Shown: in pieces, positions 8,558 through 41,264 of the stretch
How the letters are laid out: each line of letters opens with the position of its first letter
How positions within the stretch are numbered: the first letter of the stretch is position 1
Source of the DNA: a virus
Taxonomy: Duplodnaviria > Caudoviricetes
DNA: 64,000 bases
Direction: 5' to 3' (one strand)
IMG/VR virus record: IMGVR_UViG_2974796119_000001
Location: 14,834 to 78,833 of that record
The notes under the pieces: generated by a model
Database searches by the model: none
What the model was told of the DNA's origin: nothing
Seen by the model: the letters and a program-made list of their open reading frames with translations, nothing else
Position numbers and translations under genes: made by a program

Positions 8558-9793
8558 ATGTCAACAGCAGCAGATCAAAATGGAGGTGTAACTACACAGT
8601 TTTTCGGTACTGGCAATACCGAAGAAACTCAGCCAAAAGAAATAGTTACAACTTCTGATTCAGGAACAGAAACTACTTTTTTTTCAGACGAAGCTAAAGA
8701 AGATGAACCGGGTAAGGAAACTAGCTCAGAAGAAACATCTACAGAAGCTAAAAAGGAAGAAGAACAAGCAGATTCAAAAACTGACGAAACAAAAACTGAT
8801 GCAACAGAAAAAAAACCAACATTTAAAGTAAACCGTACAGGAACCAAAACCGAAACAGAAACTAAAACCGAAGAAGCAAAAACAGAAACTAATAAGGAAA
8901 CTTATTCTGTAACAGATGATTCAGTTATTAACTTTCTAAAAACAAAAGGTCTTGATATTTCATCTTTAGACGAGGTTACTAAAAAAACAAAACTACCTGA
9001 TGCAGTAGAAGAATTTAAAAAATTCAACGAAAAAACAGGCGGTGGTATTGAAGCTTACTACAATGCTAACAAAGATTGGGCTGCTCAACCAAAAGACAGT
9101 ACACTAAAAGAGTACATTAAATATCAGAATCCAGGAGCAAGTGATGAAGATATTAATACTCAATTAGAACTTTTATCGGTATCTGAAGAAGAACAAGACG
9201 AGTTATCAGAAAGAGAGCTTAAACAAAGAAAACTTGATTACAGTAAAGAGTACAACAAGGCTTTAAAATTCATGCAAGGAGTTTCTAATGAGTACAAGAT
9301 TCCAAAAGAGAATCAAAATACTCAACAAAAACCTCCTACTCCAGAAGAAATTGAGGCAGCTCACAGACCTTGGAGAGAGCAAAGAGACAAATCTTTAGAA
9401 AAACTAAATGAAATCAGTTTACCTATTGAGGGATTAGGAGATATTAAGTTACCTATAACAGAGGAACAAAAAAGCTTAATAGTTAACGCTACCCAAACTC
9501 AAGAAGCATTTTTTGACCGTTGGAAAAACAAAGACGGAACTCTTAATTCTGACAAAAGTTCTTTAGATACAGCTTGGGGTATTCAGGAAGTACGTGATGA
9601 ATTAATCGCGAATATGCTTTCAGAAGCTCACACAATGTTTATAGAAAACTTCTCTAAAGACAAGAGAAACGTAACATTAGGAAAACCAAAACAAGAGAAA
9701 ACAGGAGAATCAAACGGTTCTATGACTGTTTTAGGAAACAGTAAATCAGAGGGTTCTACAAAAATGGGAACACCTCTATTCGTAAGACAATAA
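8558..9793 (+). CDS. putative capsid scaffolding protein
   Basis: acidic low-complexity N-terminus, helical body, immediately upstream of the capsid gene. Confidence 0.55.
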   Translation: MSTAADQNGGVTTQFFGTGNTEETQPKEIVTTSDSGTETTFFSDEAKEDEPGKETSSEETSTEAKKEEEQADSKTDETKTDATEKKPTFKVNRTGTKTETETKTEEAKTETNKETYSVTDDSVINFLKTKGLDISSLDEVTKKTKLPDAVEEFKKFNEKTGGGIEAYYNANKDWAAQPKDSTLKEYIKYQNPGASDEDINTQLELLSVSEEEQDELSERELKQRKLDYSKEYNKALKFMQGVSNEYKIPKENQNTQQKPPTPEEIEAAHRPWREQRDKSLEKLNEISLPIEGLGDIKLPITEEQKSLIVNATQTQEAFFDRWKNKDGTLNSDKSSLDTAWGIQEVRDELIANMLSEAHTMFIENFSKDKRNVTLGKPKQEKTGESNGSMTVLGNSKSEGSTKMGTPLFVRQ

Positions 9794-13086: not shown

Positions 13087-13896
13087 ATGTTATCAACTAC
13101 AGACAAAGAATACCACGATAATAAAGAGTTCTGGGGAGAGCATCAATTTGTTACTTTACAGAACATAATTGACAATATAGAGTTAACGTCAGGACAGGAC
13201 AGTTATTTTAAAAAGGTAAACAGACATTCAGCTTCTATTTTTGGTAAACAAGGTATAAAAAGATTAGAAGTTGACATAAAACCAAAACCAAGAGCAGTAA
13301 GTTTTCAAGTTGGCCCAAGTAAAACATTTCCATACCCTAGATTCATGATGAATTGGCACAGGGTTTCAATGGTAAATGATTGTGGTAAGCTAATACCTAT
13401 AAATATAAAAAATGACCCTCTAACAAGAGATTACCTTCAAGACCATGAGTACGAATTATTGTATGATAATAATGGAGATATTTTAGAAGGAAAAAGTAAA
13501 AATTACAATTACGGAGAATGTGTACATAAATTAGAATGTTGTTGTGACGATAAAACATTGATTGAGGACCCTGAGTATTGGGTTAAAGGACATGATGTAT
13601 CACAGCAATTTATATTTTCTGATAATTTATACGACAAAGAAGTTGTTATTGAATTTAGGTCTTCCGGATTAGACACCTTAAATGATTGTGATATTTTAGT
13701 ACATAGCGACTTAGAGCTAACATTAACGTACTGGATTAAGTGGAATTTAATTCAAGGAAATAAAAACGCTTCTCAATCAAGAATAGATTTTTTCTGGAAC
13801 TACTATAAATTAGAAAAGAAAAGAAGTAAAAGATTATTAGGGAATAAAATAACTATTAATCAAATATTAGAATCAGTTTCATTAAAATATAGATAA
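13087..13896 (+). CDS. tail ring/adaptor protein 2
   Basis: position before the nozzle gene; FPYPRFMMNWHRVS...DYLQD. Confidence 0.55.
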   Translation: MLSTTDKEYHDNKEFWGEHQFVTLQNIIDNIELTSGQDSYFKKVNRHSASIFGKQGIKRLEVDIKPKPRAVSFQVGPSKTFPYPRFMMNWHRVSMVNDCGKLIPINIKNDPLTRDYLQDHEYELLYDNNGDILEGKSKNYNYGECVHKLECCCDDKTLIEDPEYWVKGHDVSQQFIFSDNLYDKEVVIEFRSSGLDTLNDCDILVHSDLELTLTYWIKWNLIQGNKNASQSRIDFFWNYYKLEKKRSKRLLGNKITINQILESVSLKYR

Positions 13897-16800
13897 TGCC
13901 TAAGTTATTAAACACATTTACAAAAGGAGCAATGAATAAAGATATTGATCCATCTTTAATGCCCCAAGACACCTATATTCATGCAGAAAACATAAGATTC
14001 ACTAATAATAACGGTAACGATGGTATCGGAAACAACATCAAAGGTACTTTACAAGTAAGTGATTCTACTGAAGGAAGTTCTGATTTTAAATGTATATCAG
14101 CAATTTTTGATAAAAATACTGATTGCATATTTTACTTCTTAGCTTCTACAGATGGAGTTATTAGTAAAATTGTAGAGTATGATATAACCAATAATCAAAC
14201 TACAGACGTTCTACACGATGATCAGAGTGTATTGAAACTTATTAAATCAGGATATATAACTGGAGTAGATGAAATAAACGGTTTATTAATATTTAGTGAA
14301 TGGGGTAATAACCCAAGAAGAGTCAATATAGAAAGAGCAAAAGCATACGGTAAAAACAACTTTACAGAAGAGGAAATTTCTTTAATGGTTAAGCCACCTG
14401 CTCAGAAATTAAAAACGACATTAAGAGAATCTACAACTATTTATGAGGAAGAAAATAACATTAAAGAAAAAATGTTTGCTTTTTCTTACATTTACAGATA
14501 TTTAGATGGTGAATATAGTTCACCTGCTCCTTTTAGTAATTTCGCTTTCGAGCCAGAACAATTTAATTACGACTTTTCTACTCAATCCAATAAAGCAATG
14601 GTTAACAAGTTTAATCAAGTTGTTTTAGAATTTAACACAGGAAGTAAATTAGTTACTGAAATACAGTTAATATTTAAGCAAAGTGATACCTTGCAAGCTT
14701 ACATAATAGATGATTTCAATAAGAAGCAACTGGGTTGGGGAGATAACCAAACAAAAGAATTTGTTTTTGATAATTTAAAATCAATTAGACCCTTACCTAA
14801 AGAAGTTTTAAGAAATAACTTCAGCAGAATACCTTTAACAAATAAAAGTCAATCTTTAATTGATGGTAGATTAATATTATCTAATTATCTAGAAGACTAC
14901 AATATAGAAGACGCTAATAAAAATAAAATTGAAATTGATTATTCACTTGAATTAAAAAGTGAAGATGTACTCAACTTACACCCAAAAAGAACGATAAAAT
15001 CAATAAGAGGTTACGAAGTTGTTGTCGTTTATAAAGACAAATGGTTTAGAGAAACTACAGCTTTAAGCAGTAAGACAAATACAGTTTTTGTAAAAAACAA
15101 TCTTAGCTCTAAAAGCAACACTATAGATGTTGTTATAAAAAACAAACCTCCTTTTTGGGCAAGTTACTTTCAATTTTTTATTAGACAAAACGCTAAAGAT
15201 TACGATCAAATTCTTCCAACAACATTTTATAGTGACGGTGTATTTAGATGGATGAAGATAGAGCAATCAGACATAGATAAAGTAAAGGAAGGAGATTTAT
15301 TATTTGTTAAATCTGACACAAGAGAGCTGTTAGAAAACTTAGTTAAAGTTAAAGTTTTAGAAATAACAGTACAAGAAAAAAACTTTTTAGAAGAAACAGA
15401 AACAAACTCTCTAAAGCAAATACCTGGAGTTTATATTAAAATAAAACCAGAAAACTTTAGAATATATGAAGATGATATAAAAATATATGATTTTAGCGGA
15501 TATGATAATAATAGCGGAGGAAACAATGTTATAGGAGATAACCCTAATGTTGTTCAAAAACCTGTTTATTATGGATCTTCAGGACTAAACGACTTAACAT
15601 CTTCAGGTACATATAACGGAATAGACGATGAAAGATATTTAGTCGAGATAGATAATATTCAAAAAAGTGCAACAGGTACAATTACATTAGACTCAGGAAG
15701 TTCAGGTTCTATAGATGAAATTACATCTAACGGTATAACAATAACTAGCTCAACAGTAATTTTTGACACAGATTTACCAACAACAGCTAATAATTTAGCT
15801 GCAAATATAACAGCTCATTTATCAGTACCAAACTATACAGCTACAGCTGCAGGTAATGTAGTTACGGTTACAGCTGATGTTAAGGGGTCAGCTAGTAATG
15901 GATTTGTAATAGCAGCAACAAACACTACAATTACTACCTCAACTACAAACATGGTTGGTGGTGCTGAAGACACTTTTAAATGGAGTAAAAACAATGGTTC
16001 TACATACGAGCAATTAGATGTGTTAATTACAGCAGGAAATCCACAATTATTAAACGATGGAGTTGAAATAACATTTAATTCAGCAACAGGACACGTTCCT
16101 ACTGATAAATGGATTATTGGAGCTAAATCGAATACTACTAATAAATTCGGAAATAATGAAGATTCTAGAATATTTGCAATATTTAAAGGCCCAGATGAAG
16201 ATTTTATATCTAGTGGAGCCGTAATTAAAATTATTTATGATGAATATGGTGACGAAAAAAAATACATAGAAAAAGTATATATCTCATCTTCTAATTACGA
16301 GAATTTAGAAGAATGGTTTATAGGGGATGATATTATAGCTACATTAGGTATGGATAGTAATAGAGTTTACTTTAGAAGGGGTAATGTAGCTCCTTATGGT
16401 AAAAGCAAGAAGACACAAATAAATATTACTACGGATGGAACAGGTACAATGAATCTAATTATTAGAGGTATTGGTTATGAAAACTCTAATTTTGATAAAA
16501 CAGCTAAAGTAAAAACTTTTTTAGAGGTTCGTCAAATGACAAATTTGATAATATTCGAAACAGAGCCAAATGATTCTTTGCCAGAAATATTTTATGAAAT
16601 AGGTAGGACTTACGAGATTAAAAACGGAATGCATCAAGCCGACACAGTAAATACCCCAACAGACGTAAATCAAACAGATATACTGGACGCAAGAATAAAA
16701 CTAGATTGGTTTAACGCATGGAGTTTTGGAAATGGTGTAGAAAGCTATAAGGTTTATGATGAATTTAATAAAAAAGGTTTAGACGAAGGAGTTAGGGTAA

Positions 16801-18056
16801 CTTCAAGAATTAAAGAAGAATACAAGCAGGTACACCGAGAAGAAGATGTTACTTGGAGTGATGTTTATAATAGTGATTCTAACTTTAATGGATTAAGTGC
16901 ATTTAACGCCTCTCTTTTAAACTGGATCAGATTAGATAAAGAAAACGGAAGTATTCAGAAAACACATAACAGCAATGGAAACCTAATGGTCTTGCAAGAA
17001 GAAGGAGTAGGATTGTTACCTTACAATAAAAATGTAATTTACGATACAGAAGGAGGAAGCGTAATAGGTATATCAACAAACGTACTTGATAAAAAAAGTT
17101 ATAGACCATACGCACACGGAAAAATAGGAATCGGATTAAACCCTGAAAGTTTTGTGCCTGTAGGAAGTAGAAACTACTTTACAGATAAACCAAGAGGTAA
17201 TTTAGTAAGATTATCAATAGATGGAGTTACAGAAATAAACACATACGGAATGGAACATGAGTTTTCAGACCTAATGGTTAAAAACAAAACAAACTTCCTT
17301 GTAGGGGGCCATGATCCAAAAAACAATGAATACAAATTACATCTTCCTTCAGAAAACGGATGCTTAGTATTTGTAGAAAAAGGGAGAGGATTTCCAGAAT
17401 ACCAAACTTTTGAGCCAGACTTTATGTTATCTGCCAATAACGAATTTTACTCATGGAAAAACGGTGTAATGTACCAACACAGCGCAAATGAAACTAGAAA
17501 TAATTTTTATGGAGTTCAATACGAAAGTAAATTAAAGTTTTCTGTTAATCATAGTTTTGGATCAGGTAAAATATTTAACGCTTTAGGTATTTATTCAACT
17601 CACCCTTGGCTTGCTAAATTAAAAACACTATCAACAGCAAGAGAAATACCTAAAGATTCTTTTGATAAGCAAAATGAATTTTGGTTTTCTGAAATAATGG
17701 GTAACACCAATGATGATATTTACAACAATAGTGTTTTTGGATTAGGATCATACCCGGTAACAGCAGGTGTAATAAATACAAACTTTATTCCTGACGGAAT
17801 GTGTGTTGGGGATAAAATAATAAGCAAAGACATAACTTTTATAGCAAATGAAATAACCGATATACAAGGAACTGTAATTACTTTAAAAGACAGCGTAGCC
17901 CATGCTTCTACATTTTTAATGTACGCGAAAAATCAAAACATTGATGGAGCCAGTATAAAAGGAAATATCATGGAAGTAGAGCTTATATCAGATGAAACAG
18001 AAAAAGTAGAGATACGAGCTGTAAAAACAGAAGCAATAAGGAATGTCAATACATAA
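13896..18056 (+). CDS. tail nozzle/stabilisation protein (P22 gp10-like, crAss muzzle type)
   Basis: 1386 aa; N-terminal FTKGAMNKDIDP...YIHAENIR and C-terminal NNFYGVQY motifs. Confidence 0.75.
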   Translation: MPKLLNTFTKGAMNKDIDPSLMPQDTYIHAENIRFTNNNGNDGIGNNIKGTLQVSDSTEGSSDFKCISAIFDKNTDCIFYFLASTDGVISKIVEYDITNNQTTDVLHDDQSVLKLIKSGYITGVDEINGLLIFSEWGNNPRRVNIERAKAYGKNNFTEEEISLMVKPPAQKLKTTLRESTTIYEEENNIKEKMFAFSYIYRYLDGEYSSPAPFSNFAFEPEQFNYDFSTQSNKAMVNKFNQVVLEFNTGSKLVTEIQLIFKQSDTLQAYIIDDFNKKQLGWGDNQTKEFVFDNLKSIRPLPKEVLRNNFSRIPLTNKSQSLIDGRLILSNYLEDYNIEDANKNKIEIDYSLELKSEDVLNLHPKRTIKSIRGYEVVVVYKDKWFRETTALSSKTNTVFVKNNLSSKSNTIDVVIKNKPPFWASYFQFFIRQNAKDYDQILPTTFYSDGVFRWMKIEQSDIDKVKEGDLLFVKSDTRELLENLVKVKVLEITVQEKNFLEETETNSLKQIPGVYIKIKPENFRIYEDDIKIYDFSGYDNNSGGNNVIGDNPNVVQKPVYYGSSGLNDLTSSGTYNGIDDERYLVEIDNIQKSATGTITLDSGSSGSIDEITSNGITITSSTVIFDTDLPTTANNLAANITAHLSVPNYTATAAGNVVTVTADVKGSASNGFVIAATNTTITTSTTNMVGGAEDTFKWSKNNGSTYEQLDVLITAGNPQLLNDGVEITFNSATGHVPTDKWIIGAKSNTTNKFGNNEDSRIFAIFKGPDEDFISSGAVIKIIYDEYGDEKKYIEKVYISSSNYENLEEWFIGDDIIATLGMDSNRVYFRRGNVAPYGKSKKTQINITTDGTGTMNLIIRGIGYENSNFDKTAKVKTFLEVRQMTNLIIFETEPNDSLPEIFYEIGRTYEIKNGMHQADTVNTPTDVNQTDILDARIKLDWFNAWSFGNGVESYKVYDEFNKKGLDEGVRVTSRIKEEYKQVHREEDVTWSDVYNSDSNFNGLSAFNASLLNWIRLDKENGSIQKTHNSNGNLMVLQEEGVGLLPYNKNVIYDTEGGSVIGISTNVLDKKSYRPYAHGKIGIGLNPESFVPVGSRNYFTDKPRGNLVRLSIDGVTEINTYGMEHEFSDLMVKNKTNFLVGGHDPKNNEYKLHLPSENGCLVFVEKGRGFPEYQTFEPDFMLSANNEFYSWKNGVMYQHSANETRNNFYGVQYESKLKFSVNHSFGSGKIFNALGIYSTHPWLAKLKTLSTAREIPKDSFDKQNEFWFSEIMGNTNDDIYNNSVFGLGSYPVTAGVINTNFIPDGMCVGDKIISKDITFIANEITDIQGTVITLKDSVAHASTFLMYAKNQNIDGASIKGNIMEVELISDETEKVEIRAVKTEAIRNVNT

Positions 18057-18081
18057 TAAAATCAACATAAATTAATAATAT

Positions 18082-18114
18082 AACACCTCTTACCATTAAG
18101 AGGTGTTTTTTTTT
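18082..18114 (+). terminator. intrinsic terminator after the nozzle gene
   Basis: AACACCTCTTA-CCAT-TAAGAGGTGTT plus T-run. Confidence 0.85.
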
Positions 18115-18120
18115 ACATTT

Positions 18121-18218
18121 GCCTAACGGCAAAGTATAAGGTTAGTACGCTTTGCACAAATGTTTAAATTAAAGTACTAACCATCACAAGCGTATTAATT
18201 TTATACAATGTTGTACGC
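18121..18218 (+). mobile_element. attC-like recombination site 1
   Basis: R'' GCCTAAC (18121-18127); arms GTATAAGGTTAGTACGCT / AGCGTATTAATTTTATAC; R' GTTGTACGC (18210-18218). Confidence 0.65.
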
Positions 18219-18235
18219 TTTTAAAATTACGACCT

Positions 18236-18430
18236 ATGGGTATTAAATATAAAAAAATAGAGAAAAGCAAAAAATATAAATACGTTTACAAAGTAATGGA
18301 TCAGCACGGCAATTATTTTTGGGCTGGAAAAGGCAAGATGAAAGATACTGAGCGTGAAGCGGCTTTATATGTAGATAAACAATTATTAGAAAAAGGCAAA
18401 GAGCCTGTTAATATACTGATACGTAAGTAA
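18236..18430 (+). CDS. cassette-borne small basic protein (AP2-like DNA-binding fold possible)
   Basis: TEREAALYVD motif; flanked by complementary cores GTTGTACGC / GCGTACAAC. Confidence 0.65.
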   Translation: MGIKYKKIEKSKKYKYVYKVMDQHGNYFWAGKGKMKDTEREAALYVDKQLLEKGKEPVNILIRK

Positions 18431-18438
18431 TTTTTATT

Positions 18439-18633
18439 GCGTACAACGATGTAATGTATGGTGCGTTGCTGAATTAATAACTGACTTAAATAAATAAAGA
18501 ATGAGTTTTACAGACAAAGAAATAAGCGATAGGATTGAATCTAATAATAAACTTGTAGATAAAATACAAAGTAAAATAGACTTAATTAAAAAAGAAGAAA
18601 CCGAGCAATGCACTATACATAGTGTTGTAGGGC
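18439..18633 (+). mobile_element. attC-like recombination site 2 with a long, ORF-containing loop
   Basis: R'' GCGTACAAC (18439-18447); arms GTATGGTGCGTTGCT / AGCAATGCACTATAC; R' GTTGTAG (18624-18630). Confidence 0.65.
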
Positions 18634-18728
18634 GAAGCGAACAGTGTTGCGAGCCAGTAAGCGAAGGTTTATATTTAGGCATTTCCTGTCCAAAATGTAA
18701 ACGACCATTTAGGCAAAACCTAAAATAA
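18501..18728 (+). CDS. small protein straddling the attC-like crossover point, with C-terminal Cys motif
   Basis: ...CTIHSVV-GRSEQCC...CPKC. Confidence 0.65.
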   Translation: MSFTDKEISDRIESNNKLVDKIQSKIDLIKKEETEQCTIHSVVGRSEQCCEPVSEGLYLGISCPKCKRPFRQNLK

Positions 18729-18782
18729 GCAGCATTGCCACAACTATCTGATAAACCCACCTAAGGTGGTAATTTTAACATT

Positions 18783-19043
18783 ATGGTAATAAAGTTTAAG
18801 TACGGATTTGAATATAAAAATTTTCTTTACGGATGGAATAAGAAAGAATTATACAGGCTACCTATTATTGTTCATAAAAGAAGCTACCCATTAAAGAAGC
18901 TAAACTCTATAAAAATAAATAGCCATAAAGGTTATAGAATAGTAAAAGATAAAAAAACAATTAAACAGTTACAATAATTAACAGAAATTATAAACTACGA
19001 TTATGTTATTAATGGAGCTAATAATAAAGATTGTCCTTTTTAA
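18783..19043 (+). pseudogene. hypothetical gene interrupted by an in-frame TAA
   Basis: KQLQ*LTEIINYDYVINGANNKDCPF*; frame stays open after TAA 18975-18977 to TAA 19041-19043. Confidence 0.5.
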
Positions 19044-19057
19044 TACATAATTTTTTA

Positions 19058-19165
19058 TATATTTGTCATGTAGTTACGCTCTCACAATAAAGTAACTTAA
19101 AGATATTTAACAAAAACCTTATAATGAAAGTAGTGGTGAGAGCCTACTGGATTTATAAGGTTTCT
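19058..19165 (+). promoter_or_regulatory. promoter plus loop-leader RNA switch upstream of the antirepressor
   Basis: TATATTTG (19058-19065); GCTCTCAC (19078-19085) complementary to GTGAGAGC (19136-19143) in the loop of hairpin AAACCTTATAA/TTATAAGGTTT. Confidence 0.6.
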
Positions 19166-19181
19166 TGTATTAAATAACATT

Positions 19182-19910
19182 ATGAAGCAATTAATCAACA
19201 TCACAGATTCAGAAAAAGGAAAAGCAGTAAACGCAAGAGAATTGCATACTTTTTTAGAAAGTAAACAAGATTTTACCACCTGGCTTAAAGCTAGAATTTA
19301 TAAATATGACTTTATAGAAGGAGAAGATTATACGTTCCATAAAGTTATGGAGGGTAATACTAAAAAGCACGAATACGCATTATCAATTGATTGCGCTAAA
19401 GAAATAGCAATGGTTGAAGGAAATGAAAAAGGTAAACAAGCAAGAAGATATTTTATAAATTGTGAAAAACAATTAAATAAACATAAACTACCAACAACTT
19501 TCGTAGAAGCTCTAAAATTAGCAGTTAAACAAGCAGAAGAATTAGAGCATAAAACACTTAAATTAAATAAAGCAGAAGAAACAATAAAAGTAAACGAACC
19601 CAAAGTTGTTTTTGCTAATACAGTAATGGGAAGTACTAATTCTATTCTAATAAGACAATTTGCAAAAGATTTATGTGATGGCAAATTTAAAATAGGTCAA
19701 AACAAATTATTTGAATGGTTTAGGGATAATAAATACATAAATAAATCAAACGAACCATATCAAAACTACGTAGATCAAGGTTTGTTTGAAGTTATCACTC
19801 GTTCTATAGGTAGTGGCGAAGAAACTTTCACTAGTAAAACAACAAAAATTACTTCTAAAGGAACTGTTTATTTCACTCATAAAATAAAATTAAATTACAA
19901 TGCATCCTAA
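19182..19910 (+). CDS. phage antirepressor (AntA/AntB N-terminus plus KilAC/ANT C-terminus)
   Basis: VNARELHTFLESKQDFTTWLK...AKEIAMVE...ARRYFI; PKVVFA...ILIRQFAK...GQNKLFEWFR. Confidence 0.9.
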   Translation: MKQLINITDSEKGKAVNARELHTFLESKQDFTTWLKARIYKYDFIEGEDYTFHKVMEGNTKKHEYALSIDCAKEIAMVEGNEKGKQARRYFINCEKQLNKHKLPTTFVEALKLAVKQAEELEHKTLKLNKAEETIKVNEPKVVFANTVMGSTNSILIRQFAKDLCDGKFKIGQNKLFEWFRDNKYINKSNEPYQNYVDQGLFEVITRSIGSGEETFTSKTTKITSKGTVYFTHKIKLNYNAS

Positions 19911-20481
19911 AGATAATAATATTATTAAGTGTATTCCTTTTTTAAAAGTAAACAACAACGATTCTATTATAAGACTGGATAACCCACATTTAAAATCTAG
20001 AAAAAAAACACGTGATTTTTTTAAAAAGAATGGTTATTGGAAACCTAAAACGTATGTTGGGAATAAAGGATATATATATATGCATTTAATCGATAGACCT
20101 GTTCTACTACATAGAGTAATAGCTATTCTTTTAATAAAGAATCCATTAAACTTTACTTGTGTTAATCATAAAGACGGGAATAAATTAAATAATCATGTTT
20201 CTAATTTAGAGTGGTGTAGCTATAGTTATAACACTAAGCATTCATACAATGTTATAAAAACTCAGTCATATAATGACTTAGTTCTTAAAGGTAAAAAAGG
20301 CAATATGAAGAGAATAGTTTTAACAAAGAAATTATCAATAAAAATATACAGAGATTACCTAATTGGTAACACTTCATATAGGGAGTTAGCTAAAAAATAT
20401 TCAATAGGAAAAACCACCGTTGAAAGAGCTGTAAAAAGTAAAGGACAGATTTACTTTGCTAAAAAAATTAAACAACAATAG
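19900..20481 (+). CDS. HNH homing endonuclease with C-terminal HTH
   Basis: LHRVIA...VNHKDGNKLNNHVSNLEWC. Confidence 0.9.
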   Translation: MHPKDNNIIKCIPFLKVNNNDSIIRLDNPHLKSRKKTRDFFKKNGYWKPKTYVGNKGYIYMHLIDRPVLLHRVIAILLIKNPLNFTCVNHKDGNKLNNHVSNLEWCSYSYNTKHSYNVIKTQSYNDLVLKGKKGNMKRIVLTKKLSIKIYRDYLIGNTSYRELAKKYSIGKTTVERAVKSKGQIYFAKKIKQQ

Positions 20482-20485
20482 AATT

Positions 20486-20884
20486 ATGATGGAAGAAAAA
20501 TTAGAGCAAAAAATTAAAGAACTAAAAAAATTTATTGAACAAAAAACTGATTTAGGTACGGCAAATTACTTAGGGAAAGAAATACGAGAGATTTGCGGAA
20601 TGGTTGAAACAACAAAAGTTAAAACAGATAAAGAAACATTCGAAAAGTTTATGGGATGGATGGGCATGAAAGCATCTAGGACTAAACAAATTAAAAACCA
20701 CACAGTTGTTGAATATGAAGATACTGATACTTGTGACGAGAGATTTACTAAGCAAGCTTATGGAGAATTTGATACAGGTGCGGTGTTCGATGAAAACGGA
20801 AAACTATTAAAAGGATATATAGATAGTCACGTTGCCGTAGCATCTAGCAATAGCAGTGATATTTATATATTACTGAAAGATTAA
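20486..20884 (+). CDS. hypothetical protein
   Basis: ATG at 20486 preferred over the in-frame TTG at 20456. Confidence 0.7.
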   Translation: MMEEKLEQKIKELKKFIEQKTDLGTANYLGKEIREICGMVETTKVKTDKETFEKFMGWMGMKASRTKQIKNHTVVEYEDTDTCDERFTKQAYGEFDTGAVFDENGKLLKGYIDSHVAVASSNSSDIYILLKD

Positions 20885-20898
20885 AACAACAATAAATT

Positions 20899-21207
20899 AT
20901 GAGAGATACAAAACCAACTAGTTTGTTGACTGATGAATTAAGAGCTAGTTTTATTAAATGGGGAGAATCTAAAAATTTGGATTATATACCAGACGGTAAA
21001 GATGGTTACAGTTATAGAGCTTATCAGACTATAAGGTCTAGTACATTATTTTCATGGGATTACATAGATAGATGCCCAGATAGTCATAAGTACCACATCC
21101 TTAAAATGTACTTTAAAGAAGTTCATTCTCTAGGTATTAGTGGATTTTCTTTCGAAGAAATGGACGCAGGAATAATTACAAAAGTAAAATATTTAAAACA
21201 ACAATAA
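20899..21207 (+). CDS. hypothetical protein
   Basis: leader TTAAAACAACAATAAATT-ATG. Confidence 0.7.
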   Translation: MRDTKPTSLLTDELRASFIKWGESKNLDYIPDGKDGYSYRAYQTIRSSTLFSWDYIDRCPDSHKYHILKMYFKEVHSLGISGFSFEEMDAGIITKVKYLKQQ

Positions 21208-21210
21208 ATT

Positions 21211-21759
21211 ATGATATACGTAACAGACAACTTCCTTCCAGAACAAGACTTTAAAAAACTACAAGACTATTGCTATAGTAATGACTTTAAAATACACGAT
21301 ACAGGAGAAAAAGAATTTCTAGTGCTTCCAACTCCAAAAGAACTACTACCTCAACTAAAACAACAAGGACTTGAAATATCACTTTCTTTTATTAGAAAAG
21401 CACACAAAGATTTCGATACAGATTTAAGGATTCATTGCGATTCAATAATTAACGGTAAACAAACAGTAATGGCATCTGTTCTATACATTAACAAGGCAGA
21501 AGGTGTTACCCAAAACGGAACAAGATTCTATAACCATAAAATATATGGGCCTAAATTAGAAGCTGACGATCCTAAAATTTTTGACGACCTTATTTCAAAC
21601 CATAGCGAAATAAAAGAAAACTGGGAGCCTACAGATAAAGTTTACAGTAAGCCAAATAGATTACTTGTTTATGACGCATTAAAATTTCACAGTAAATGGC
21701 CTCAAGTAATTGAAGAAGGAGAAAGAATGGTGTTAGTAACTTTTTATACCGATAAATAA
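21211..21759 (+). CDS. 2OG-Fe(II) dioxygenase (DUF6445-like)
   Basis: HCD facial-triad start, VLYIN...GTRFY, PNRLLVY...FHS, terminal R..LVTF. Confidence 0.8.
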   Translation: MIYVTDNFLPEQDFKKLQDYCYSNDFKIHDTGEKEFLVLPTPKELLPQLKQQGLEISLSFIRKAHKDFDTDLRIHCDSIINGKQTVMASVLYINKAEGVTQNGTRFYNHKIYGPKLEADDPKIFDDLISNHSEIKENWEPTDKVYSKPNRLLVYDALKFHSKWPQVIEEGERMVLVTFYTDK

Positions 21760-21872
21760 TGAAAAAAATACCGACAAAAGAATTAAGATTTGAAAAAAGA
21801 AGAATCCCTTTAGAAGAAACAATTAAAATCTATGCAATTCATACATTGTTGGCAAATCGTTTTTATTATTAA
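21759..21872 (+). CDS. 37-aa ORF crossing an attC-like core
   Basis: MKKIPTKELRFEK...IHTLLANRFYY; ATG overlaps the previous stop. Confidence 0.4.
   Translation: MKKIPTKELRFEKRRIPLEETIKIYAIHTLLANRFYY
21841..21856 (+). mobile_element. attC-like right half-site (R' core)
   Basis: ATACATT-GTTGGCAAA; exact complement TTTGCCAAC at 22301-22309. Confidence 0.55.
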
Positions 21873-21932
21873 TTAATTTTTAAGGTTTTAACTCCGCCGA
21901 TTTTAAAAGTGAGTAATTAAATTCAAAATATT

Positions 21933-22298
21933 ATGCAAACAGGAGATTTAATAGTGACGGTTCTTTGCGGGGTAATAGCTTTACTTATTATTTACGCCTT
22001 GCCGTTAATTATGACTGATGATTACGATTACCCAAGTGAAATTAGGTTTAAGTATTTAATTAGATTTTTAGATTTTTACTTGTGGATAGTTAGTTTTTTA
22101 TTCGTAGTAGGTGGAACTTTAGGTGTCGGATTGATTTTTATAATAGCGTGCTTAGTTTTAATGCCAATTGGTTTGTTTTTTGATTTTTCTTTTTTCGACT
22201 CAAAAGAAATGTTCTTAATAAATTTTTTCGGGGGTTATTATTATTTTGTGGTTGCCTACAGCATATTTAGGCATTCAAAATATTGCAAAATTAGGTAA
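21933..22298 (+). CDS. cassette-like membrane protein
   Basis: 3-4 TM segments, T-rich atypical composition, bracketed by complementary cores. Confidence 0.7.
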   Translation: MQTGDLIVTVLCGVIALLIIYALPLIMTDDYDYPSEIRFKYLIRFLDFYLWIVSFLFVVGGTLGVGLIFIIACLVLMPIGLFFDFSFFDSKEMFLINFFGGYYYFVVAYSIFRHSKYCKIR

Positions 22299-22300
22299 TG

Positions 22301-22309
22301 TTTGCCAAC
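22301..22309 (+). mobile_element. attC-like left half-site (R'' inverse core)
   Basis: TTTGCCAAC two bases after the stop codon of 21933-22298. Confidence 0.55.
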
Positions 22310-22355
22310 ACCAAAATAAAAAGTCGTTTTAAAATAAATCAATAAAATAGAAATT

Positions 22356-22550
22356 ATGGCAAAATCAAAAAGAAGTATTAAAAGAAGAAAAAAAGTAAAA
22401 AGTAAACCTAAATACAACTCAATACACACAGAAGATAATTCTTTCGAAAAAGGATATATGAAAACTGATGGAATGAGTAGGATTTGTAAATATGATAAAA
22501 ACCACAACTTTTTAGGATACGCTACTGAAGAAGAATCTGAAAATTTTTAA
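22356..22550 (+). CDS. small basic hypothetical protein
   Basis: Lys/Arg-rich N-terminus. Confidence 0.6.
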   Translation: MAKSKRSIKRRKKVKSKPKYNSIHTEDNSFEKGYMKTDGMSRICKYDKNHNFLGYATEEESENF

Positions 22551-22957
22551 AAGTTATAAACCATATTAGTCATGTTTTTATCCCCATAAATAAAACCATT
22601 ATCTAAATACTTATTAATCAGGTGTTCGTTTTTAATCCATGAAAGGATAGTTACGGCACCTGCTTTTTTTGCTAATTCAATAATGCTTTTAATAGTGTAG
22701 TCAACAACTTTTTTTCTAGCTTCTTTATCCTTTATTTTTGGATTACTTATTATAAATTCCATTATAAATACCTTACTAGCAGAAGTACTGTATAAAAAAC
22801 CAGCACAAGCAGGTTCACCATTTACAGATATTAAAATACCATCTTCCATATTATCAGGTAAAGCAACCCTTGGTACTGGAGTCCACCTCCAAAGCTTCCA
22901 CCATTCTGCTAACATTTTATAATCTTCCTCAGTTAAATGTCTTAAAGTGTATTCCAT
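22547..22957 (-). CDS. GNAT-fold acetyltransferase-like protein (T7 gp13-like position)
   Basis: beta-strand/helix pattern ACAGFLY...MEFIISNP...LINKYLDNGF; next to the ejection genes. Confidence 0.65.
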   Translation of the reverse strand: MEYTLRHLTEEDYKMLAEWWKLWRWTPVPRVALPDNMEDGILISVNGEPACAGFLYSTSASKVFIMEFIISNPKIKDKEARKKVVDYTIKSIIELAKKAGAVTILSWIKNEHLINKYLDNGFIYGDKNMTNMVYNF

Positions 22958-40026: not shown

Positions 40027-40055
40027 ATAAAGTATTCAATAAACAACAACTAGAC

Positions 40056-41264
40056 ATGGGGTTAATAAATAACGAAGAACTTTACCCAAAAGACAAAAAA
40101 ATAACTATCAACGATCAAGTTATTGGTTCTGATAAAGATAATAATGGAGTTACAAGAAATTACCCCATGTCTGGTATTGTTAGCGTAATAAACGATGCTA
40201 ACGAATTAAAATTTAGCCTATATAAGTACTCTGATGATGATGCTAATCTAAGAAAAGGAGTATTCAATATTACCGGTTCAGATTTTAAGTTTAGCGATAC
40301 AGATCAGGAAAGTAATAATAATACTGCTTTATTTAATGTTATAAAAAACAATAAAGAAAATATTATCTTATACCTTAAAGATGGTACTGAGAATTTCGGG
40401 TATTATCATGTTAAAAATGCGACTCAAAACACTCAAAGTTTTACTTTCGAGTTAGAGCTAATACATAATATTAAAGCAGGTTCTTACGTGTTAGAAAACA
40501 CTTATGTTTTTAACATAGGAATAACAACATCTACATTAACTCAAATACAATCTGACTGGAATGAATCAAACGCTGTAGAGCCAAGTTTTATTAAAAACAA
40601 GCCCCTAATACCTACAAAATACACAGACGAAGAAGTTCGTGATGTAGTAGGAGCTACGCTAGTAGCAGGTTCAAACGTAACAATAACACCAGATGATGCA
40701 GCAGACACTATTACAATAGATGCTACTAGTTCAGGAACAACAGATTTAAGCTATGTGCCAAGTACAAGAACAATAGAATCTAGTAGTGGTAAAAACACTG
40801 TGATACCAACAGTAACTTCTGCTAACGCAGGGTTAATGAAGGCTAATTTTTACGAAGAAGGTACATTCAATCCTGTTTTAAATGCAGTTGGTGTTACTGA
40901 TTATAAAGTGACCCAAGCAACAGGAGGTTATACAAGAGTTGGAAATTTAGTACATTATTACATAACAATATATACATCAGGTAATACTATTGGAACACCT
41001 ACATCGGAATTAAAAATATCAGGTTTACCTTTTAATAGTTTAAGTACTCAATCTTTAGAGGGGGGTGTTGTGAGGTTTTTTGTAGGTTCAAATTTATCCC
41101 TTACTGATGTATCAAATTTAACAATAGGAATTGGGTTTAATTCTACAGATTTATATTTCCATTTAAAACACATAACACCTACTTCTCCCTCACCAATTAC
41201 TTTTTCAGGTGGAGGAATTATAAGAGTATCAGGTACATACACAACAAATTTTTACACCCCATAA
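40056..41264 (+). CDS. tail fibre protein
   Basis: QSDWNE...FIKNKP fibre motif; C-terminal YEEGTFNP...YTRVGNLVHY receptor-binding-type domain. Confidence 0.7.
   Translation: MGLINNEELYPKDKKITINDQVIGSDKDNNGVTRNYPMSGIVSVINDANELKFSLYKYSDDDANLRKGVFNITGSDFKFSDTDQESNNNTALFNVIKNNKENIILYLKDGTENFGYYHVKNATQNTQSFTFELELIHNIKAGSYVLENTYVFNIGITTSTLTQIQSDWNESNAVEPSFIKNKPLIPTKYTDEEVRDVVGATLVAGSNVTITPDDAADTITIDATSSGTTDLSYVPSTRTIESSSGKNTVIPTVTSANAGLMKANFYEEGTFNPVLNAVGVTDYKVTQATGGYTRVGNLVHYYITIYTSGNTIGTPTSELKISGLPFNSLSTQSLEGGVVRFFVGSNLSLTDVSNLTIGIGFNSTDLYFHLKHITPTSPSPITFSGGGIIRVSGTYTTNFYTP

Follow-up and report, generated by a model that had tools for sequence, protein, structure and literature searches.

Integrons are the textbook gene-capture system, and the region around 18119-18744 of the phage DNA described here raises the question of whether small accessory genes are exchanged as cassettes in a phage without a recombinase of its own. 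The window, i.e. the whole stretch of 64,000 nt that was analysed and to whose positions our coordinates refer, corresponds to bases 14834-78833 of virus record IMGVR_UViG_2974796119_000001, which is complete (78,833 bp, with direct terminal repeats) and represents a marine, Pervagoviridae-like Flavobacteriia podophage. An initial annotation had interpreted the region as an integron attC-like cassette array, filled or shuffled by an integrase of the host or otherwise supplied in trans. Our own conclusion is that ~18125-18744 is probably a pair of gene cassettes, carrying open reading frames (ORFs) 1 and 2, in a short recombinase-less array with Bacteroidota-type attC-like boundaries, and that an Xer-like recombinase acting in trans would exchange them. 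The features on which this conclusion depends are the following:

18114-18121, plus strand: TACATTTG box, a putative Bacteroidota-type -7 promoter element matching TAnnTTTG.
18119-18218, plus strand: site 1, a complete attC-like site of 100 nt (architecture score 20).
18204-18230, plus strand: left arm of the bracket around ORF1, including R' of site 1 and complementary to 18427-18453.
18236-18430, plus strand: ORF1 (64 aa), a conserved small protein of phages (C-terminus ...EPVNILxRK) that forms the cargo of cassette 1.
18427-18453, plus strand: right arm of the bracket, beginning at the ORF1 stop codon and including R'' of site 2.
18439-18632, plus strand: site 2, a complete attC-like site of 194 nt (architecture score 21).
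18501-18728, plus strand: ORF2 (75 aa), a site-encoded N-terminus of 41 aa joined to a Cys-rich tail of 34 aa.
18737-18769, plus strand: degenerate site 3, in which R'' GCCACAAC (18737-18744) and a spacer region of 6 nt precede a short hairpin (18757-18769).
18783-18977, plus strand: ORF3 (64 aa), with which the genes retained by the dominant strain of metagenome X5 resume on the right side of the variable segment (see below).

Site 1 consists of R'' (TTGCCTAAC, 18119-18127), a 6-nt spacer, the arm L'' (18134-18152), a 35-nt loop, the arm L' (18188-18206), a 3-nt spacer and R' (GTTGTACGC, 18210-18218), with an L stem of 19 bp. Site 2 follows the same plan with R'' GCGTACAAC (18439-18447), a 6-nt spacer, L'' (18454-18470), a loop of 133 nt, L' (18604-18620), a 3-nt spacer and R' GTTGTAGGG (18624-18632), its L stem being 17 bp long. 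The initial annotation had claimed two complete AAC/GTT sites with inverted repeats, and we found each of the listed elements at its position, including the left spacer that is 3 nt longer than the right one; the 8/5 spacing given for site 2 is simply another register of the stem, read here as 6/3. The exact complementarity claimed between R' of site 1 and R'' of site 2, bracketing ORF1, likewise holds (9 of 9 positions, within a 27-nt inverted repeat), the degenerate third R'' is present, and the proposed promoter box at the first site matches a recurrent motif, boxes of the TAyATTTG type being repeated in ~15 intergenic gaps, in keeping with a presumed promoter function. The box overlaps the extended R'' of site 1. 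At site 3, reading of the sequence gave no R' GTT after the short hairpin.

The 9-mer GCGTACAAC has exactly two copies in the window, on opposite strands and flanking ORF1, and this pair is the core of the bracket, an inverted repeat of 27 nt with 22 Watson-Crick pairs. ORF1 is encoded in identical form on three contigs and has homologues at 45-58% identity; homologues are also present in 26 viral loci of unrelated contexts, and 25 of 27 loci of the ORF1 family have no flanking inverted repeat; since the gene family is thus not accompanied by sites, the bracket belongs to the junctions and not to the gene. ORF1 has no Pfam family match; structural look-alikes from an atlas hint, as a lead only, at an AP2 or integrase-arm-like DNA-binding fold. 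ORF3 has a single relative in metagenome contigs, at 44% identity. The loop of site 2 contains the ATG and ~34 of the first 41 codons of ORF2, and the L' arm and spacer contain the remainder. The loop of site 1 holds an ATG with a 6-codon mini-ORF (18160-18183), possibly a vestigial gene start of the kind found in the loops of larger sites.

We scanned the complete genome for the architecture AAC-spacer-stem-loop-stem-spacer-GTT with a left spacer 3 nt longer than the right (cut-off 12). Sites 1 and 2 were the two best matches; the other three scored 12-16, and shuffled genomes gave 0-3 matches each. The presence of AAC and GTT is uninformative here, because the scan requires them. The GC-weighted inverted-repeat score of the bracket (21.5) was tied for the highest in the window, as compared with a maximum of 19.5 among 10 shuffles. 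The core sequences taken alone are not enriched in the window, neither as strict RYYYAAC...GTTRRRY pairs (12 found, ~20 expected by chance) nor as the core 9-mer with one mismatch allowed. Measured against the strict integron consensus, R'' of site 1 (GCCTAAC) fits, R' of site 1 (GTTGTAC) and R'' of site 2 (GTACAAC) each miss one position, and R' of site 2 (GTTGTAG) misses two. As RNA, site 1 folds with -26.3 kcal/mol (z-score -2.3), and the plus-strand RNA of 18122-18640 has a z-score of -3.9, whereas that of the minus strand is -1.6. Folded as single-stranded DNA, site 1 gives three small hairpins and the long stem does not form; the bottom strand of site 2 (201 nt) folds no better than shuffled sequence (z-score -0.05).

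Sites 1 and 2 are members of a family that comprises at least 58 elements from Flavobacteriia phages and chromosomes, a number that includes a few low-scoring window matches that are probably due to chance. The family layout is YAACG, 4-5 nt, a stem of 17-25 bp, a loop of 5-170 nt, the other arm, 1-2 nt and TGTTR, with sites up to ~220 nt in length. AAC is followed by G in 50 of the 58 elements and GTT preceded by T in 54, so that AACG can pair with TGTT through G.T. The asymmetry of the sites lies in their spacers (5-6 versus 2-3 nt); conserved extrahelical bases or a bulge were not seen in the 17-25-bp stems listed, for which no dedicated bulge analysis was run. When ~350 kb of phage DNA was searched without bias for long stems, 10 of ~16 stems were flanked by AAC and GTT, and the remainder were mostly terminator-like. 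A relative of site 2 lies in G001, a 53-kb provirus otherwise unrelated to the window: 18430-18625, i.e. site 2 and a short upstream flank, is 81% identical to L031:2929-3125 from this provirus, and by hand alignment the L stems of the two copies differ by three compensatory double changes. Elsewhere in the same provirus, arms like those of site 2 form a compact hairpin with a 5-nt loop. Polaribacter phage P12002L contains at least 9 sites homologous in stems and cores, and in Formosa sp. L2A11 sites of ~125 nt, with cores and stem feet homologous to those of the window, follow each gene in a co-directional run. Both TTGCCTAAC of site 1 with its stem foot GTAT(A/G)..GGTTAGT..GC and the arms of site 2 match sites of Formosa and P12002L. 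A 14-mer scan returned mostly chance or unrelated matches, two possible members (L148 and L217) and one clear family member, L219; in this IMG/VR contig the site (L219:1819-1935) has arms nearly identical to those of site 2, a 66-nt loop and R' GTTAGCGG. Locus L005 contains two paralogous DNA methyltransferase genes (L005:20-330 and L005:2049-2360) that share a near-identical site and their first 62 codons, with the TAAC core as the exact starting point of the identity. This core is also where the match between L005 and Flavobacterium phages of the hemulen/stinky group sets in, and two L005 sites give a weak, sub-threshold Rfam match to WsnRNA46.

Two properties of the family point to cassettes. 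Among 15 pairs of adjacent sites in phages and Formosa (less than 800 nt apart), R' of one site and R'' of the next were complementary at 8-9 of 9 positions in 11, as compared with 3.8% of other pairings. The window pair reaches 9 of 9, whereas within a single site R' and R'' match only at background level. Such complementarity between neighbours is the signature of units that carry both site halves. The second property is a strand bias: with elements read on the YAACG...TGTTR strand and scored with a strand-symmetric scheme, the stems contain ~76 G.T versus 6 A.C pairs (5:0 in the window, 24:0 in Formosa), and the three non-Watson-Crick pairs of the site 1 L stem are all G.T on the plus strand. 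In the window, P12002L, loci L003, L005 and L044 and the provirus, it is the sense strand that folds better, and in the Formosa array the antisense strand. Because the biased strand is antisense to the genes in bacterial arrays, we regard the bias as a property at the DNA level.

Further evidence comes from strain differences, which were read from Logan contigs rather than reads; there was no RNA data set among the sequencing runs listed. In X5, an independent metagenome, the dominant strain (~99% identical, depth ~30) matches the window up to 18128 and again from 18740; it thus lacks or replaces 18129-18739, with unlike sequence at both contig ends, and contigs of depth ~3-12 from the same run carry parts of the missing segment. 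In X7, a wastewater run, 18442-18739 is present with zero differences between flanks that are unlike the window. The X5 strain also skips 21769-22306, which removes ORF 21933-22298, an ORF with its own R'/R'' pair, with a break at GCC|AAC. This pair comprises:

21826-21856, plus strand: half-site, consisting of the end of an L' arm and R' TGTTGGCAAA, upstream of ORF 21933-22298.
22301-22310, plus strand: R'' TTTGCCAACA, just past the stop of that ORF and complementary to the R' at ~21847.

The breaks at 18125-28, 18442-46, 18739/40 and 22306/7 each fall within 5 nt of an AAC core, and the breakpoint 18739|18740 recurs in the two independent metagenomes; since neighbouring junctions share core letters, the exact crossover cannot be placed within them. 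The initial annotation had expected relatives to gain and lose cassettes at the G-TT cores. Whole units do differ, as expected; the breakpoints, however, lie at AAC and not at GTT, which is still the integron-equivalent position if it is the plus strand that recombines. At four X7 joints (18232>18421, 18448>18623, 18231>18426 and 18223>22980) the sides measure only 21-28 nt, and these joints were left uninterpreted; the last of them would be an island-less variant (see below).

Which enzyme might act on such sites? The initial annotation had noted that the window contains no integrase, and this holds for the complete 78.8-kb genome, where no match to the tyrosine recombinase family PF00589 was found; the window therefore represents an array without a recombinase, of the CALIN type (attC clusters without integrase). 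P12002L also lacks such a recombinase. Related arrays in other genomes have one close by. Among five array-carrying bacterial genomes, the best match to the IntI model TIGR02249 lies 0.3 to ~11 kb from intron-bearing loci in three and ~14 kb away in a fourth, and is a 60-aa fragment beside the intron in the fifth. None of the five contains a match above the cut-off of the model, and in the recombinases beside sister arrays model positions 183-238, the region holding the IntI-specific insertion, are unmatched. The Formosa recombinase (376 aa) passes the Xer-type model NF040815, and a relative of 268 aa (40% identical) lies directly downstream of the array in provirus G001. Of the integron array originally proposed, the cassettes thus stand, given the site family, the R'/R'' rule and the strain units, and IntI does not, the partner recombinases being Xer-like; the proposed shuffling by a host or trans integrase survives in the same way as to its cassette units, with a recombinase in trans that is presumed.

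Sites of the family are also targets of group II introns. Provirus G001 contains three identical introns of ~1.86 kb, each encoding a reverse transcriptase and maturase (no endonuclease domain was found in the encoded protein) and each located 1-4 nt past a site hairpin, at ...TGT|T:

L031:3126-4980 (copies at 9784, 12082 and 14251 on the reverse complement of G001): three introns in tandem orientation within 6.5 kb.

One copy splits a homologue of ORF2 at the equivalent of 18625|18626 in the window. When it is removed in silico, the frame stays open and the same 41-aa N-terminus is joined to a different C-terminus of 83 aa; over the first 23 codons, ORF2 and the L031 homologue differ by four synonymous and two non-synonymous changes. 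Recombination between the intron copies could swap downstream exons. Introns of the same clade occur at 78 Bacteroidota loci, at ...TATAC-N3-4-TGT|T and mostly antisense to the flanking genes, and in-silico removal restores the full site architecture in 27 of 47 bacterial insertion sites. The window sites match the pattern of occupied sites (site 1 ...TATACAATGT|TGTA; site 2 ...TATACATAGTGT|TGTA). The intron-bearing sites of bacterial loci L047-L124 fall into length classes of ~58, 123-125 and 185-189 nt, and another genome, G002 (OZ245049), has at least 5 intron copies within ~35 kb adjoining a recombinase.

A plausible mechanism would resemble that of integrons. By this analogy, one strand (here the plus, or sense, strand) would fold at the sites and an Xer-like tyrosine recombinase would exchange strands in the AAC/GTT core; in this way single genes, each with its site, would be excised, inserted or swapped as whole units. 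Such an enzyme is missing from the phage genome and would have to be supplied by a cassette platform on the host chromosome or by a co-infecting or resident phage. Catalysis by an Xer-like recombinase, its supply in trans, the strand used and the exact point of crossover are thus what we infer. In phages, the folding strand is transcribed as well, so that the sites probably act in addition as mRNA hairpins that hold the start codon of the next gene in their loop. More tentatively, and with somewhat less than even confidence, we propose a wider picture: Flavobacteriia phages and their hosts may share an IntI-independent cassette-exchange network in which the accessory genes of phages, strictly lytic ones included, are assembled as single-gene cassettes by a borrowed Xer-like recombinase acting on the folded sense strand, and the sites may double as mRNA loops for start codons, sometimes encode a shared N-terminal peptide, and serve as homing sites of group IIC introns that reshuffle what lies downstream.

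Several observations weigh against cassette exchange at this locus. No recombination event has been directly observed, and the phage genome has no recombinase. Only two of the window sites are complete, site 3 and the pair at 21.8-22.3 kb being degenerate. Contig ends at shared cores would also be expected from homologous recombination at conserved motifs, and the homology between the window and L031 stops at GT|T rather than at an AAC core. Finally, the folding strand is the sense strand in all phage examples, about half of which have the next start codon in the loop, so that a role at the RNA level could be the selected function in phages.

The last point is the starting point of the strongest alternative, in which the sites are RNA-level punctuation only, i.e. 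5' stabilising or processing hairpins and stems that expose start codons, and the cassette-like variation is a by-product of homologous recombination. The better fold of the plus-strand RNA speaks for it, as does the start of site 1 about where transcription driven by TACATTTG should begin; in addition, the loops of site 2, of the L003 and L005 sites and of 5-6 of the 9 P12002L sites contain start codons. We nevertheless consider it unlikely, given that the same family shows its 24:0 G.T bias antisense to the genes in the Formosa array, outside mRNA, and that neither the cassette-wise covariation of R' and R'' nor a dedicated adjacent recombinase has an obvious explanation in RNA. The introns suggest another possibility: the hairpins could be homing or terminator-like targets of group IIC introns, with shuffling caused by intron loss and by recombination among intron copies rather than by a site-specific recombinase. 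This would account for the three identical G001 introns at GT|T, for the homology between window and L031 that ends exactly at the insertion point with a different 3' exon in frame, and for the 78 Bacteroidota loci with their common target. Sites are, however, present without an intron match in the window and without an intron seen in the examined stretch of P12002L, introns pick their targets rather than create them, the strain breaks fall on the AAC side and not at GT|T, and the R'/R'' rule is not predicted by intron mobility; taken together, these points make an intron-based explanation distinctly improbable.

Canonical attC sites recombined by the IntI of a host, as the initial annotation proposed, seem very improbable to us. 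The AAC/GTT cores, the imperfect palindrome and the cassette rule do fit, CALINs have been published in virulent phages, and five phage attC sites were recombined with IntI1 (PMC9892861). Against this stand the absence of IntI from the genome and of any TIGR02249 match above cut-off from the five array-carrying genomes, the length of site 2 (194 nt), the lack of conserved extrahelical bases in the listed stems, the reversed polarity relative to the genes, and the near absence of integrons from Bacteroidetes reported with IntegronFinder 2.0; moreover, the only family member that has been assayed, P12002L_attC1, gave no verified IntI1 product (PMC9892861). That the palindromes are chance inverted repeats in AT-rich intergenic DNA is hardly conceivable: the cores alone are indeed not enriched, but the site scores are far above those of shuffled sequence, and chance is refuted by the similarity of site 2 to its provirus counterpart (81% identity, with compensatory changes in the stem), by family-wide conservation and by the cassette rule. 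On the letters alone, we also considered and dropped a transposon or miniature inverted-repeat transposable element (no target-site duplication), pdif/Xer 28-mers (no dif-like palindrome) and an inverton.

Several known systems resemble the locus. CALINs in virulent phages, P12002L among them, were described by Qi et al. (2023; PMC9892861). Like the phage in the window, P12002L is a marine phage of Flavobacteriia with a lytic lifestyle; it lacks an integrase, and its small accessory genes are separated by attC-like sites. Its P12002L_attC1 has the same layout (AAC, 6 nt, stem, loop, stem, 3 nt, GTT) and is a member of the family. The two P12002L sites of that study were called with integron-trained tools and assayed with IntI1, and of six phage sites in all, only P12002L_attC1 yielded no verified IntI1 junction; this failure argues against IntI and leaves an Xer-like enzyme untouched by the assay. 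The family, its sense polarity, the start codons in loops, the Xer-like partner and the targeting by introns are not described there. The rAID-1 arrays of Bacteroidales (Ross et al., 2019; bioRxiv 10.1101/471110) are headed by a XerD-like tyrosine recombinase followed by co-directional genes, with intergenic repeats that the authors called reminiscent of integrons. The Formosa array, whose sites are homologous to those of the window, has the same layout, the likeness to rAID-1 being one of gene arrangement; rAID-1 arrays are chromosomal, occur in gut bacteria and carry immunity genes, and the window differs from them in having no recombinase and in sites that are inverted relative to the genes.

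With classical integrons the window shares folded imperfect palindromes, AAC/GTT cores, an unpaired spacer, a variable loop and the cassette rule, and site 1 (100 nt) is within the classical attC range of 57-141 nt, unlike site 2. It differs from them in the long, nearly perfect L stems, in the sense folding strand of the phages, and in recombinases without the IntI-specific domain. Group IIC-attC introns insert at TTGT|T after the bottom-strand hairpin of an attC site (PMC7923331). The introns of G001 and of the 78 Bacteroidota loci similarly insert at (K)TGT|T, 1-4 nt past a hairpin and, in bacteria, antisense to genes; in contrast to IIC-attC introns, the provirus intron lies in sense and interrupts a gene, and the window has no intron; the likeness to IIC-attC introns is one of target site.

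In T4-type phages, the 'mobile regulatory cassettes' known as promoter early stem-loops (PeSLs), and in T7 the RNase III sites between the early genes, are stem-loop and promoter punctuation that separates small phage genes, and the units in which genes are gained and lost follow this punctuation. To our knowledge, these require no dedicated recombinase, show no cassette-wise covariation of cores and have no chromosomal, recombinase-linked homologues. To date, the tools and enzymes of classical integrons have been the sole means of assessing phage CALINs. The short array in the window is homologous in sequence to other arrays, obeys the same cassette rule and differs by cassettes between strains; it thereby links a published phage 'attC' that had lacked an explanation, Xer-headed chromosomal arrays and a clade of group IIC introns. 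If recombination were confirmed, it would explain mechanistically how small accessory genes, anti-defence genes probably among them, turn over so rapidly in marine phages, and it would open a route of gene flow between lytic phages and host chromosomes that is overlooked by current integron finders.

In the genome, the cassette sites form the left edge of an accessory island that separates two structural genes:

13896-18056: muzzle-like gene (1386 aa; Pfam PF25731 and PF25729, crAss-type muzzle protein).
18057-22957, not assigned to a strand: accessory island of ~4.9 kb, from the muzzle gene to the next structural gene (23056-).
18086-18112, plus strand: terminator hairpin and T-run after the muzzle gene, an inverted repeat found by reading the sequence.

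The muzzle protein is ~35% identical to its counterparts in Cellulophaga phage phi38:1 (Pervagoviridae) and Maribacter phage Panino. Neither of these phages has the island at this position, and structural genes directly follow the muzzle gene there. A search of viral contigs, among which records very close to this genome may be lacking, returned zero close relatives of the muzzle C-terminus and zero copies of the terminator 22-mer. An Rfam scan at gathering thresholds gave tRNAs only; it detected no intron in the window, and the stretch 18000-19300 was free of credible matches. The island contains ORF1-3, the antirepressor Ant, an HNH endonuclease, other small ORFs and an inverted homologue of Panino CDS0073. 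This homologue (22547-22957, minus strand) closes the island; in Panino, it comes after the muzzle gene and shares its orientation. A further difference between the X5 strain and the window is at 22333-22568, beside the 3' end of the CDS0073 homologue, and the muzzle gene of the dominant X5 strain has a 12-nt in-frame insertion at 16391 and scattered substitutions. In the structural region, another long stem flanked by AAC and GTT (40043-40185), with 14-bp arms 99 nt apart and a sequence unrelated to sites 1 and 2, spans the start of a 402-aa ORF (40056-41264). Within the island, a second putative promoter, TATATTTG, precedes a structured leader of ~107 nt (fold z-score -2.1) at 19066-19181, which is followed by the antirepressor gene.

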